A stretch of DNA of 64,000 nucleotides from positions 15,346,485 to 15,410,484 of the forward strand of contig NC_134027.1 of the NCBI RefSeq assembly GCF_964204645.1, read 5' to 3'. The position numbers and the translations under genes are program-made. The notes below the pieces were generated by a model. It ran no database searches. It was not told the origin of the DNA and saw nothing but the letters and a program-made list of their open reading frames with translations. This DNA comes from Tubulanus polymorphus. Its lineage: Eukaryota; Animalia; Nemertea. Positions within the stretch are counted from its first letter, which is position 1, and the number at the start of each line of letters is the position of its first letter. Positions 46,322 through 61,783 of this stretch are shown one piece after another.

Positions 46322-46800
46322 TACGGAAGCGATAAGGGGCCTCGAGATGTCGCGTTCCAACTCGACAAGTCGTCATATTTATGTCGATATATCGCGATAT
46401 ATCGCGTCAAGTCGATATGAATATGTCGATATATCGTGACGTTTTGACGACATATTCCGTTTTCTCGACCATTTTCCTCGCGACAAGTCGATATATTTAT
46501 GACGACTTGATACTCAGTCGTCTTATTTCTGGTCTCTTCGTCTTCGATATCGGCGCGTCGTCAAATTTATGGCGACTTGTCGTGACCTTATTGCGACTTG
46601 AAATGTCGTCATGTCACGAAGTTTATTCGACAAATCAACTTTCCAATGTCGACTGTGAAGCCGTGTCACTGAAATCATGTCGTCAGATCGCGATAGCCTT
46701 CTCGATAACTCGACAAAATTTTGTCGACTAGTGAGGATACACCGACAAGTCGATGCAGATACGTCGACTTGTTTTGACGTCGCGAAAAGTGTCCTAATTT
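46322..46800 (+). repeat. Left TIR of the IS3EU-type element (~480 bp)
   Basis: Reverse complement of 61307-61783 up to ...GAAAAGTGTCCTAATTT. Confidence 0.9.
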
Positions 46801-47181
46801 CTTAAACGCGCTCAACCGCTGGCGCCGCATCATTCAGGACTTTCAAAGCCGGTGTCGGGTAAAGCTTCACGTGTATGCTGAGGTAAGCAAAGGCATGCAT
46901 TGGATCTTTTTAAGCTCACCCACCCAGTGGGGGCCAGGCCTCTAGTCCCCGGTTCGTGGCACTGGCCGTACTTCCACTGAGACTTATGACCAAAACTGCG
47001 CGACGGCCCCACGCGCACGAAGGCCGGGTTCATTTGCTATACTGTTGATAAAAACATCTTTGGTCGGCAAGCATGAGGCATAAGCCTAGGCCTCTGTGAT
47101 AAACTAATATTTTTTCAACCTAACCTAGCCTAGTATTCACGTGAATATTTTGGCAGGTTTTGGAATTGTGGGGTTCGAACG

Positions 47182-47255
47182 ACACACGCACGCACGCACG
47201 CACGCACGCACGCACACACACACACACACACACACACACACACACACACACACAC
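47182..47255 (+). repeat. (CACG)n(CA)n microsatellite
   Basis: Direct reading. Confidence 0.95.
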
Positions 47256-47315
47256 TCTGGCGGCGGGTTTTTACGATCTACGTTTTGTGCCACCTTTCAT
47301 TTTGGAGCCAACAAA

Positions 47316-58600: not shown

Positions 58601-59745
58601 TCTTATGTATTCTGATAAGATGAACGCCCGGTTAAATTTTTTTTAGTAAGCAGGCGCGGATCCAATGGGGCTTCAGCCGACCCGGACTCTATTTTTGATC
58701 GGGCTTACTTTCTCGCACGTGGGAAGCATATGGGAATGTTACTAAAATGACTGTGAGCATCATTTAACCTTGGATGAATACTCCAAGATTTAACACAGTA
58801 CAGTGTAACAGTGTACTTTATAGTAGTGACAAATTCCCTCTTAATTAAGTACCGGTAATACCTGCAACCTAGACCCGGTTCCACAGTTGTGAGTTAGAGT
58901 TAACTCTGAGTTAAAATTAGTTCATTTTCAATGTGTTAACTCAGGGTCAAATCTTAACTCCGAACTGTGGAACTGCAGCCTGGTTTTTATGATACTGCCA
59001 CCAAACGTTCATCATCTGAAAGCCACACGTCCTTTTCTGTTGAAAACCGTTTTAACTTATGTTCTATCTCGATTAGTTTACAAGATATCGGCACATAAAC
59101 CTTAGCCTGTAACGGCTGTCATTATGCCTCTGATACAAAAATGTATGTGAGTTGAAAAGTTTATAAAAAGTTTGCAATTTTCAGAATCATTTTAAGTGTG
59201 GTATCCATAGAAAACCGAAAACTTCGGGAACATTAATCAATATTAAATGAGTAATTAATTAATGAATAATTAATCAATTTTCTCTATTCCAACATTTATC
59301 AGGATTGGGACCATCAGTTATACTTTGTTCTTTTTGAATGTCCTTGATTTCTTTTTTTAAAATTCATTTTTAATGTTCACCCGGATGTTATGAAATGGGG
59401 TATAGCTTTACGACCAGTCAGTCCACAGTACAAACCTCAAACCTCCATTCAGACTAATTTTCATCGTCATCTCAAAAGGCAAGGTTGAATCTTCATTAAG
59501 GTGGTGGGACCTGGTTTAGAAATTCAACATTTCCAGTGGGTAAAAAGCTGCCCGTCGTGTAACAAAGGACAGTTTTTAGCTCGGTATACTATTTGATAAT
59601 CGTCCTTGAATCCTCAAAATTGTTGTCTCAGAATTTCTAATAATTCATAGAATTGAAAAATTTATCGATTATCTTCATCACATTTTATTGAATTACTAAT
59701 CAAAGTATATGTTTTATATTTGACATGTGAACACATATTACAATT

Positions 59746-60936
59746 TCATCTCATAAAGTTACGATCTTGAATCGTTTCGATCACTGCAATAACTGCTCGG
59801 AAAAGTTGCGGTGCATCATCGGGTGACGTAGGAAGAGGAAGTTGATTATTCTGTGCTCGACAAGCACGGCGAATGAAGTCTAAGAATTCAGTGCTACACC
59901 CTCTTTCAGGATATTCGTCAACGTATTCTCCAAATACTTCATCTAGGTCATCAACACGACACGATAAAGGGAAAGAGTGATCGACGGCCCCAAATAACTC
60001 ACACGATTCGTATGCAATATTGGGAATGAAACCCCCTTCCCCATTTCGTTGCTGCCTTATTCGGTGCGAATTCCACATGGTTCTGTACGTGTCTAGGTGT
60101 CGTTGAATTACAGGCAGGAAACAGAATCGGAGACATTGTACATGTATGGCATCGGCGTCATGAAATATGCCCGTGTCCCTCATGTCCAGGAAGATATTTC
60201 GCCAGAAGTCAGTGAAGTTTAATCTAAGTCGTGACCAGAAACTTTCAATTCGTTGGTTAGCAGTCGATCTACCATACATAAAGCTATTCATCCCACGCAT
60301 AAGGTCGCCATGAGAGAATCTTAGTACAATTTGCATGTCCCTCAAAATAGCATTTTCTGTCCCTCGGTCACATCTTAGCAGTCTCGGTACTCGCCCTATT
60401 TCTTTCAAGAAATCCAGGTAAAATTGCGCTATGTATCGGGGGTTATTGTTAGACGGTCCACATTTGAGCCAAAGAAGCTTTCGAGAATAACCATCTATTG
60501 CAGCGTGGATGGCAATACCGAAAGGTTTTAGCTTATCGTAGCCATCGATGTGAATGAGAAAATTTGGACCTTGATTGATATATTGTCTCCTCCGGAAGCG
60601 ACGGTGTCGACGGAGAGAAACACCTTCGGGATCAATTGCTTCAAGGAATTGTCGGACGGTATCTTGGGAGACTCGGACACCATGCACCACATTGAGGAGC
60701 CTCCAAATGCTCCTGTAACCGTAATTTTCATAACCAGATTGATGTAGTTCCAAAATAAGTCTGATTAACTGAATATGATCTTCTGCCCGCCGAATCCTCA
60801 ATCCTAGTCTCCTCTTAATGCGTTTTATTGTCCGTTCACTGATGAGTATACCGTGATTGGTTACCAAAGAGGCTCGAATTTCTGTCACGGTGTACATTCT
60901 TTCAAAATAATGACGGACTAAGACATCTATATCCAT
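59746..60936 (-). CDS. IS3EU-type DDE transposase/integrase (396 aa, intact)
   Basis: N-terminal HTH (ISERTIKRIKRRLGL), YGYRSIW, GPNFLIHIDGYDKLKPFGIAIHAAIDGYSRK, PRLLRCDRGTEN, GRSTANQRIESFW, WNSHRIR. Confidence 0.88.
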   Translation of the reverse strand: MDIDVLVRHYFERMYTVTEIRASLVTNHGILISERTIKRIKRRLGLRIRRAEDHIQLIRLILELHQSGYENYGYRSIWRLLNVVHGVRVSQDTVRQFLEAIDPEGVSLRRHRRFRRRQYINQGPNFLIHIDGYDKLKPFGIAIHAAIDGYSRKLLWLKCGPSNNNPRYIAQFYLDFLKEIGRVPRLLRCDRGTENAILRDMQIVLRFSHGDLMRGMNSFMYGRSTANQRIESFWSRLRLNFTDFWRNIFLDMRDTGIFHDADAIHVQCLRFCFLPVIQRHLDTYRTMWNSHRIRQQRNGEGGFIPNIAYESCELFGAVDHSFPLSCRVDDLDEVFGEYVDEYPERGCSTEFLDFIRRACRAQNNQLPLPTSPDDAPQLFRAVIAVIETIQDRNFMR

Positions 60937-61306
60937 CTCCTGAAATGATAATTACATGAGATAAAACGTGAGAACAAAACGTGTCAATAAAAACGTAAGG
61001 CCTGCTTGTAAACATTCAGGTGCAACGTGGACGCCCTGTAATTTTTTTTTTATATTTCGGAAGGGGATGGGTGAATTTTCTTAAAAGGGCCATATAGACT
61101 AATTTTGTAACATATCTATGTACTGAAATGGCACAATGAGCCTTCGCCTGTGCACCATAGTGCTTGCTGATACGTCCATTTAGTTGGACTGAAAGATTCC
61201 AGCGTGCATATCAGTATGTACTTACTGGGACACACAAACGATTCCTTGGACCTGTGTATGTCAGCGGCACTGGTAACGGTGGTAGGCCTGCATCGGTTGC
61301 ATGTAC

Positions 61307-61783
61307 AAATTAGGACACTTTTCGCGACGTCAAAACAAGTCGACGTATCTGCATCGACTTGTCGGTGTATCCTCACTACTCGACAAAATTTTGTCGAGTT
61401 ATCGAGAAGGCTATCGCGATCTGACGACATGATTTCAGTGACACGGCTTCACAGTCGACATTGGAAAGTTGATTTGTCGAATAAACTTCGTGACATGACG
61501 ACATTTTTTGTCGACAAGTCGCAATAAGGTCACGACAAGTCGCCATAAATTTGACGACGCGCCGATATAGAAGACGAAGACACCAGAAATAAGACGACTG
61601 AGTATCAAGTCGTCATAAATATATCGACTTGTCGCGAGGAAAATGGTCGAGAAAACGGAATATGTCGTCAAAACGTCACGATATATCGACATATTCATAT
61701 CGACTTGACGCGATATATCGACATAAATATGACGACTTGTCGAGTTGGAACGTGACATCTCGAGGCCCCTTATCGCTTCCGTA
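61307..61783 (-). repeat. Right TIR of the IS3EU-type element
   Basis: Reverse complement of 46322-46800; followed by TSD GGTTTT. Confidence 0.9.

Follow-up and report, generated by a model that had tools for sequence, protein, structure and literature searches.

A complete IS3EU transposon in the nemertean Tubulanus polymorphus with a probable second gene of its own, a predicted CIDE-N/ubiquitin-like/RING ligase

CIDE-N domains are known from apoptosis and lipid droplets. In a 64,000-nucleotide stretch of the T. polymorphus genome (the window), exons for such a domain lie ahead of a RING exon, between the ends of an IS3EU-type transposon, a group whose structure and function are called 'largely unexplored' in a passage of PMC11934779. 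The locus raises the question of whether this gene belongs to the transposon and what its product would do there. The element is a complete IS3EU transposon, and we consider it probable that its second gene encodes the element's own predicted self-assembling CIDE-N/UBL/RING ligase (UBL, ubiquitin-like domain), a lineage variant of the SAM-like/UBL/UBX/HECT genes found in most related animal elements.

The element occupies 46322-61783 (~15.5 kb), with a transposase and a convergent second gene between its terminal inverted repeats (TIRs). Its ends, target-site duplication (TSD), left flank and transposase are as follows.

44557..46601, forward strand: ~1.03-kb tandem duplication over the left junction (copies 44557-45581 and 45574-46601)
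46316..46321, forward strand: left TSD, GGTTTT, read from the sequence
46322..46800, forward strand: left TIR, 479 bp, starting TACGG, from the TIR alignment
59746..60936, reverse strand: IS3EU DDE transposase, 396 aa from the first Met, from open frame and Pfam
61307..61783, reverse strand: right TIR, 477 bp, ending CCGTA, from the TIR alignment
61784..61789, forward strand: right TSD, GGTTTT, read from the sequence

The ~480-bp TIRs and the GGTTTT TSD described in the first-pass annotation are thus both present. Aligned over 487 columns, the TIRs show 4 substitutions and two indels, of 10 and 8 nt, and the occurrence of GGTTTT on both flanks by chance has a probability of ~4e-4 under the local base composition. 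Among the repeat copies compared in the window, the full ~480 bp is common to the two element ends only; many shorter TIR-related copies lie at 44.5-56.3 kb, near and inside the element. Included in the tandem duplication are the left TSD and the initial ~280 nt of the left TIR, which accounts for the second TSD and partial TIR at 45296-45580. No empty site was found in the 64-kb window. The duplication, the shorter copies and the domain in exon 5 had all been overlooked previously.

The transposase, reported as intact, does run uninterrupted for 396 aa (open frame 59746-60951 on the reverse strand, without stops). It matches the Pfam family rva_4 (E=1e-34) and an N-terminal HTH_21, and has the catalytic triad D131/D190/E231. 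It is an IS3-like DDE transposase without an HHCC domain, like the IS3EU proteins of Repbase, and its core, compared by eye, matches IS3EU-1_DR and IS3EU-1_CGi motif by motif (HIDGYDKLKP, IDGxSR, D-x-GTEN, NQRIE). Since homologous transposases extend further at the N-terminus, the 396-aa model may lack a 5′ exon; none is evident in 60900-61320. The T. polymorphus RefSeq set holds a truncated transposase 95% identical to this one, and sequencing runs contain variant versions of the element, which may be copies or alleles. The TA..TA termini (TAYGG..CCRTA) with TIRs, the 6-bp TSD and the transposase core are all shared with IS3EU/GingerRoot elements, as described in excerpts of PMC10045372, PMC6839031 and PMC12730594, and the assignment to IS3EU stands.

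The second gene is encoded on the forward strand, convergent with the reverse-strand transposase as originally claimed. A 7-exon model giving a 388-aa chain was built here, independently of the exon coordinates in the first-pass annotation. Splicing was read from assembled contigs of X4, a single run from one sample, taken as RNA from its GT..AG joints alone.

47316..47424, forward strand: predicted exon 1, N-terminal basic half of CIDE-N (K-V-W...R-K-G); profile score, GT donor, phase 1
48260..48309, forward strand: 3′ end of an alternative upstream exon; X4 joint 48309->49801, GT..AG, 50 letters on the short side
49801..49959, forward strand: exon 2, short form, acidic half of CIDE-N (DGTEIDNDYF); Pfam, frame check
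49960..50092, forward strand: exon 2 extension to the AG/GTGAGT donor used in X4; joint 50092->51010, GT..AG
51010..51060, forward strand: exon 3; X4 joint; a 290-aa UBL-RING frame starts from the ATG at 51036
51435..51502, forward strand: exon 4; first ~68 letters of X4 contig 19, exact 5′ edge approximate by inference
52907..53245, forward strand: exon 5, conserved middle domain, predicted ubiquitin-like; X4 splicing, homolog search, fold model
54189..54371, forward strand: exon 6, acidic/low-complexity linker; in X4 contig 19, 182 letters separate the pieces of exon 5 and exon 7; cover at 54206
54994..55251, forward strand: exon 7, coding part with SACP repeat, RING and stop; Pfam, motif, X4
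55252..57331, forward strand: likely long 3′ UTR with TIR-related repeats; X4 contigs, AATAAA at 57326

Exon 4 is also backed by a variant at 51469, at the same depth in X4. The alternative upstream exon lies in a repeat-rich part of intron 1, and its frame is open into CIDE-N, with no Met in the part seen. X4 contigs cover the 3′ UTR up to 55320, at 55608-55983 and at 56000-57315, presumably as one transcript.

At the N-terminal end, Pfam detects CIDE-N within 49761-50093 (E=6e-12, exon 2) and gives no CIDE-N match to exon 1 alone. Adding exon 1 raises the score against the homolog CIDE-N profile from 44 to 68 bits, the two exons spanning profile positions 2-73, and motifs and profile agree on a CIDE-N domain that keeps both its basic and its acidic face. 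The R-K-G basic and DGT-E-I-D-x-D-Y-F acidic motifs are those of DFF40/CAD, DFF45/ICAD, CIDE-A/B/C and DREP1-4; unlike in those proteins, the domain here is fused to UBL and RING, transposon-borne and multi-copy. Nor is the gene a DFF40, DFF45 or CIDE ortholog, which would carry a C-terminal nuclease, chaperone or CIDE-C domain: Pfam scans of the window exons and of full homologs returned CIDE-N and RING alone.

At the other end, the C3HC4 RING lies exactly as annotated (C-x2-C-x11-C-x-H-x2-C-x2-C-x10-C-x2-C at 55099-55212), with its eight zinc ligands canonical and a Pfam zf-C3HC4_3 match above the gathering score (E=3e-12). It had been called absent from the list of open reading frames; no ATG does precede the RING, but the exon is in the stop-to-stop list (54994-55251). 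The Arg after the last Cys and the aromatic C-terminal tail are presumably linchpin and dimer features. The RING also matches those of XIAP, cIAP, MYLIP and MEX3C and resembles the C-terminal RINGs of IAP-, MEX3C-, MYLIP/IDOL- and RNF123-type ligases; unlike the IAP, MEX3C and MYLIP types, the protein has no BIR, KH or FERM domain, and the matches are generic, with no single family standing out. The five SACP repeats ahead of it are a 12-bp tandem repeat (55009-55067), absent from all six homologs checked.

Between the two lies exon 5, whose AF2 model (pLDDT 96) is predicted to be a ubiquitin-like beta-grasp domain, with no subfamily named. The leading VIA and Foldseek matches are ubiquitin-like domains (Z 8.2-7.5, rmsd 2.4-3.5 Å, 76-98 residues; best match Z 8.2, rmsd 2.6 Å over 79 residues), at middling Z-scores and Foldseek E-values of at least 0.009. 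Its distance from CIDE-N in the 388-aa model is 85 aa; in six homologs that spacing ranges from 58 to 92 aa. When exon 5 was used in a word-index search for longer proteins, none of 74 candidates qualified, and the ESM Atlas offered nothing beyond unnamed eukaryotic clusters (best 0.95). By profile search 6 proteins were recovered, none of them a model of the second gene from the host species.

Exon 5 alone, used as query, returned 113 representatives, of which 112 were kept after one repetitive match was dropped. An N-terminal part longer than 45 aa is present in 47 of these: 37 have a SAM-like domain there, 5 CIDE-N, 5 neither and none both (the SAM-like call extends one Pfam match, P0031, E=8e-6, by iterated profile). 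SAM domains are a type known to polymerise, and this distribution makes the N-terminal slot look like a general assembly module. C-terminal parts longer than 60 aa (54/112) include 23 UBX-like, 7 HECT and 11 RING. In the middle-domain tree the window's sequence groups with all five CIDE-N rows (98/96 support), and three RING-type rows sit outside this CIDE clade.

Related transposases also have this middle domain beside them, in convergent HECT or kinase genes. A first scan of metagenomes, with the single transposase as query, came up empty, as did a viral scan. Of 80 loci around metagenome transposases, 26 extend 3 kb or more downstream, and 21 of these 26 show a convergent module (17 HECT, 11 middle domain), most often of the SAM-like/UBL/UBX/HECT kind; in two loci the middle domain stands with a kinase. 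The transposase tree splits by partner (SH-aLRT 99 for the CIDE side, 100 for kinase, 99 for 17/18 HECT rows). No CIDE-N or RING lies beside a transposase in the 80 loci, the four in the window's clade having at most 1.4 kb downstream, so that adjacency in bivalves rests on accession numbers, which carry no orientation. At four or more Mytilus loci, second gene and transposase have paired accessions on equal-length contigs:

VDI33098/VDI33099, where VDI33098 belongs to the same 90% cluster but its partial model lacks CIDE-N
XP_076106715-7/XP_076106719
XP_071156989/XP_071156982-5
CAC5375175/CAC5375178

The Mytilus homolog forms a 20-member cluster (at least 90% identity) from many loci, some numbered next to transposases; no transposase-adjacent accession was seen in Argopecten. 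One Mytilus member, VDI59898.1, is labelled 'DFF 45 kD alpha subunit' in the database, probably a mislabel.

The first-pass annotation knew of no CIDE-N plus RING architecture and regarded the gene as cargo. Neither view holds. The CIDE-N-UBL-RING order already exists, unnamed, in the databases: Pfam finds CIDE-N with RING in 4 of the 113 representatives (Argopecten, two Mytilus species and Mercenaria), and complete versions, 377-427 aa long, are modelled in Mercenaria and at several loci in Mytilus. The gene belongs to the transposon, in keeping with the recurring convergent layout; with the trees, this marks it as the usual second gene of the family, in which modules have been exchanged. The family-marker middle domain, the convergent modules and the bivalve proteins together point to a long-held lineage variant and not a fresh capture, likely one in which CIDE-N replaced SAM and RING replaced HECT. 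It shares with the SAM-like/UBL/UBX/HECT genes the middle domain, the convergent downstream position, an E3 module at the C-terminus and, at the N-terminus, a domain of polymerising type; it differs in having CIDE-N for SAM, RING for UBX plus HECT, ~390 rather than ~720-850 aa, and a separate transposase clade. A two-protein layout is given as ancestral for IS3EU in part of PMC10853768; the second genes in the excerpted IS3EU/GingerRoot literature are alpha-kinase and TET/JBP genes (fungi) or captured gene fragments (Selaginella), whereas here CIDE-N-UBL-RING is found. No account of CIDE-N plus RING, or of a ligase in IS3EU, turned up in the literature searched; a description of the second ORF may stand in Repbase entries or in the Kojima 2019 review, both outside that search.

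Whether this copy still makes the fused protein depends on one splice donor. X4 confirms exons 4-5-6-7 spliced as modelled, so the junctions of the RING half of the proposed 388-aa product stand, and the CIDE-N exons are present; X4 does not show them joined in frame to the RING. The 388-aa chain requires an exon-2 donor at 49960, where the window reads CAG/GG and X4 CAG/GT; with GG at 49960-61, the window's site is unusable as donor for the fusion. Donors at 49940 (phase 2) and 50093 were rejected for want of an open frame with exons 3-4, and a GC donor at 49966 is in phase but absent from X4. Along the X4 path, which comes from the alternative upstream exon and splices at 50092, a TGA where exons 3 and 4 meet closes the CIDE-N frame, which is not that of the RING. 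The assembled X4 contigs include no in-frame CIDE-N-to-RING contig. At 95% likeness X4 gives no cover of exon 1, which is uninformative; the X3 version has 8 differences there in 296 nt. X5, presumed RNA, has next to nothing of the stretch. The 7 variable coding sites seen in the runs, with 4 non-synonymous and 3 synonymous changes, do not suffice for a selection test.

It is conceivable, though we judge it unlikely, that the working product is the CIDE-less 290-aa UBL-RING protein, or that the gene is decaying, with the CIDE-N exons vestigial or spliced non-productively as a control. The GG in the window would fit this, as would the X4 contig that carries GT at 49960 and still reads through to 50092, the other contigs that run unspliced into the intron, and the A at -3 of the ATG at 51036. 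Yet full-length models persist in Mercenaria and Mytilus, exons 1 and 2 have open frames that combine into a whole CIDE-N, contig assembly drops rare splice forms, and a 104-aa upstream frame overlapping the 290-aa start would probably hinder it.

Less likely still is a role against the host's apoptotic nuclease, as the first-pass annotation proposed, in which CIDE-N would hook host DFF40/DFF45 and the RING ubiquitinate them, blunting DNA fragmentation, for instance after transposase-made breaks. According to a portion of PMC8647176, CIDE domains assemble head to tail into filaments by way of opposed charged faces, and DFF40 and DFF45 bind each other by CIDE-CIDE contacts. The Mercenaria CIDE-N matches CIDE-B, ICAD, CIDE-A and CAD (E 1e-7 to 1e-4), and it is physically plausible that the domain co-polymerises with host CIDE proteins. 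However, the family's constant is the UBL, whatever enzyme follows, most relatives have a SAM-like domain in the CIDE-N position, and the retention of both charged faces suits self-assembly; targeting of DFF40/DFF45 lacks support. That a single-copy host gene and a stray transposase fell by chance between two independent MITE insertions is highly improbable: the shorter TIR-related copies and the missing empty site would allow it, but full-length repeats bounded by the same 6-mer, the recurrent two-gene layout and the Mytilus cluster argue against it.

Polymerisation for the element's own use, the other option initially raised, fits best. On the reading of the second gene as a lineage ligase, CIDE-N would polymerise head to tail, as its charged motifs and the filaments described in part of PMC8647176 suggest, taking the role of SAM in sister elements, and clustering would gather the RINGs and switch on ligase activity. 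The UBL would be the constant addressing module, its constancy suggesting a substrate common to the family, which may be the element's own transposition machinery or a restricting host factor rather than DFF40/DFF45. The present copy would have lost the in-frame donor and make at most the CIDE-less protein, sister copies or alleles retaining the donor. More tentatively, IS3EU elements may carry a modular protein-modifying device of polymerising head (SAM or CIDE-N), fixed UBL address and swappable HECT, RING or kinase, in which a lophotrochozoan lineage adopted the CIDE-N filament domain of apoptosis and kept it from nemerteans to bivalves, perhaps turning the device on and off through splicing of the CIDE-N exons and perhaps co-polymerising with host DFF40/DFF45.

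An unnamed UBL that stays fixed while head and enzyme are exchanged offers a direct way into IS3EU function, and finding its binding partner would reveal the purpose of the second gene. A domain of apoptosis and lipid droplets would here be put to new use. In bivalve annotations, multi-copy genes labelled 'DFF45-like', 'CIDE-N' or 'RING-type' are likely to belong to transposons, and such genes can inflate apoptosis gene counts.

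The element at 46322–61783 is an ordinary member of the IS3EU family. The first-pass annotation had described a TIR-bounded transposon with a GGTTTT target-site duplication (TSD) and an intact transposase, and this was confirmed by TIR alignment, the flanking sequences, Pfam and a stop-free reading frame. The TIR pair spans 487 alignment columns with four substitutions and two short indels, and GGTTTT flanks both ends (probability by chance ∼4 × 10−4). The IS3EU definition calls for TA..TA termini and, as a rule, 6-bp TSDs (PMC10045372), and in fungal members the termini are TAYGG..CCRTA (PMC12730594). 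The transposase matched Pfam rva_4 (E=1e-34), with catalytic residues D131/D190/E231, and by-eye comparison of its motifs agreed with Repbase IS3EU-1_DR, as given in the supplement of PMC10045372. Its top protein match was a 95% identical truncated transposase from Tubulanus polymorphus itself, followed by matches of 45–54% identity, frequently from bivalves. The TIRs were placed by inverted-repeat alignment of the two ends, and the exon model of the second gene was derived from splice signals:

46322–46800, left TIR, starts TACGG
47316–47424, plus strand, exon 1
49801–(49959 or 50092), plus strand, exon 2, two alternative ends
51010–51060, plus strand, exon 3
51435–51502, plus strand, exon 4
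52907–53245, plus strand, exon 5
54189–54371, plus strand, exon 6
54994–55251, plus strand, exon 7
59746–60936, minus strand, IS3EU transposase, 396 aa, stop-free
61307–61783, right TIR, ends CCGTA

An empty site was looked for within the 64-kb window and none was found. A 1.03-kb near-identical tandem duplication (44557–46601), which could be of biological origin or an assembly artefact, repeats the left junction. Short non-autonomous copies related to the TIRs (73–92% identity) lie at 44541–44927, 45025–45154, 53724–54035, 55310–55657 and 55921–56279, some of them in an intron and the likely 3′ UTR of the second gene. Elsewhere in the window, a Maverick/Polinton-like element (23667–40220; 131-nt TIRs at 98%) carries what we take, by eye, to be a protein-primed PolB-like gene with an intein-like insert and capsid-like, integrase-like and ATPase-like ORFs; the PolB-like gene is broken by one stop near 25418. 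The regions 2279–5461 and 740–2134 hold decayed fragments of a second Polinton-like copy, at 72–91% to the element above, together with a reverse-transcriptase-like ORF. Large arrays with a 31-bp satellite unit occupy 9487–11300, 14100–15400 and 41680–44534; a 155-bp tandem repeat lies next to them, as does a ∼1.2-kb dispersed repeat with four occurrences.

In the second gene, Pfam identified the previously proposed CIDE-N domain (E=6e-12) and C3HC4 RING (E=3e-12), the latter with the spacing described. The five SACP units were also found, as a 12-bp tandem repeat, and were absent from all six homologs searched. The proposed 388-aa, seven-exon product held in part: its length is obtained exactly, and free of internal stops, if exon 2 closes at 49959, but the donor that this requires reads GG in the window.

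We compared the gene with X4, a sequencing run whose RNA status was inferred from its spliced joints (none of the five runs is recorded as RNA). A 918-nt X4 contig contains, in order, ∼68 letters, 52906–53244, a 182-letter gap and 54992–55320, a layout that fits exons 4-5-6-7. GT..AG joints were found at 48309→49801 and 50092→51010, the latter in a contig of depth 20.7; exon 3 is likely joined to exon 4, because this contig also explains the summed depth at 51456 (80.5 = 30.8 + 29 + 20.7). On the path through 50092, the CIDE-N frame terminates at the exon 3/4 junction and ATG 51036 opens a 290-aa frame with the middle domain and RING. A CIDE-less or decaying second gene is an alternative to which we give a minor share of probability. 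Since X4 reads T at 49961, creating a canonical in-frame CAG/GT donor (X3, a run from the same sample, reads G), that donor is present in another copy or allele. None of the six joints listed from the X4 contigs is the in-frame exon 2–exon 3 joint; these contigs come from one sample and lose rare forms. Thus, of the expectation that transcripts link CIDE-N to RING, the splicing of exons 4-5-6-7 was recovered but the in-frame CIDE-N joint was unseen in X4.

The middle domain, encoded by exon 5, corresponds to no Pfam family, yet it matched 113 representative proteins. Pfam CIDE-N and RING occur together in four of these, and a fifth has CIDE-N only; the five come from Argopecten, Mytilus galloprovincialis, M. 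coruscus, M. edulis and Mercenaria (10 proteins looked up). CIDE-N lies 85 aa from the middle domain in the 388-aa model versus 58–92 aa in six homologs. In a middle-domain tree of 58 rows (labelled rows of at least 85 aa, the six top unlabelled matches and the window), the window grouped with all five CIDE-N rows with support of 98/96, from few columns and a bootstrap not fully settled, and three RING rows fell outside. The homologs support the CIDE-N–RING fusion as the putative ancestral form.

The AlphaFold2 model of the middle domain (106 sequences) reached pLDDT 96. Foldseek returned nothing at E≤0.001; its leading rows were mostly ubiquitin-like (SATB1 ULD, LC3, RING1B RAWUL, UFM1). The best match in a wide structure search was a polycomb ULD (Z 8.2, rmsd 2.6 Å, 79 residues), followed by ATG5, USP7 UBL and RA domains (Z 7.9–7.5). 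The predicted model is consistent with the ubiquitin-like (UBL) fold class.

Iterated profiles, applied to 112 representatives with the repetitive P0041 left out, classed 47 N-terminal parts as 37 SAM-like, 5 CIDE-N and 5 neither, and 54 C-terminal parts included 23 UBX-like, 7 HECT and 11 RING. In a metagenome scan run with an alignment of transposases, retaining the best 80 of 522 relatives, 21 of the 26 loci with at least 3 kb downstream carried a convergent module, on the opposite strand every time; modules at those 26 loci comprised 17 HECT and 11 middle domains. Neither CIDE-N nor RING was found near the transposase at these best 80 loci. Pfam checks of 10 frames confirmed HECT or UBX in 6; at two loci (L028:2632-4908 and L057:4494-6710, minus strand) they showed a protein kinase, in place of an E3 module, C-terminal to the middle domain. 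A 2.9-kb IS3EU-type element at L024:296-3180 (TIR ends, GATTAA TSD) gave no match when searched for a second gene.

For Mytilus, 10 transposase clusters out of the 120 listed were looked up. Their accessions form four tight pairs with those of the CIDE-N–RING clusters, the contigs within a pair being equally long, and three looser pairs; adjacency is inferred from accession numbering, which carries no orientation. No such pair was found in Argopecten. A 51-row transposase tree, built by a quick method and with near-copies that inflate clustering by partner, set apart the transposases on the CIDE side, those on the kinase side and 17 of the 18 on the HECT side (SH-aLRT 99–100), the L028 and L057 transposases forming their own clade. 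From these comparisons, the predicted CIDE-N–UBL–RING gene is a regular second gene of the IS3EU family.

CIDE domains build head-to-tail filaments via basic and acidic faces (PMC8647176). Both motifs are kept here, R-K-G in exon 1 and DGTEID in exon 2. SAM domains likewise form head-to-tail filaments. Because SAM-like and CIDE-N heads exclude each other in the same N-terminal slot, this slot would most simply hold a polymerisation module by which the enzyme is clustered. The UBL domain most likely sets the target, since it stays the same across changes of head and enzyme, and the target would be common to the family. This argues against the initial proposal of a ligase aimed at DFF40/DFF45, which we consider unlikely, somewhat more so than a CIDE-less or decaying gene. 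Chance flanking by MITEs is very improbable.

One of the 20 members of a Mytilus cluster (P0114/P0004; ≥90% identity) bears the annotation DNA fragmentation factor 45 kD subunit, and a close relative is labelled NEUR; these proteins look like the transposon second gene. The literature covered held no account of CIDE-N–RING proteins or of an IS3EU ligase; Repbase reports, outside that coverage, may bear on the point. The domain order CIDE-N–UBL–RING is already present, unnamed, in bivalve annotations, and we regard it as probable that the gene is a family second gene, with a polymerising head, a UBL target module and a clustered ligase.
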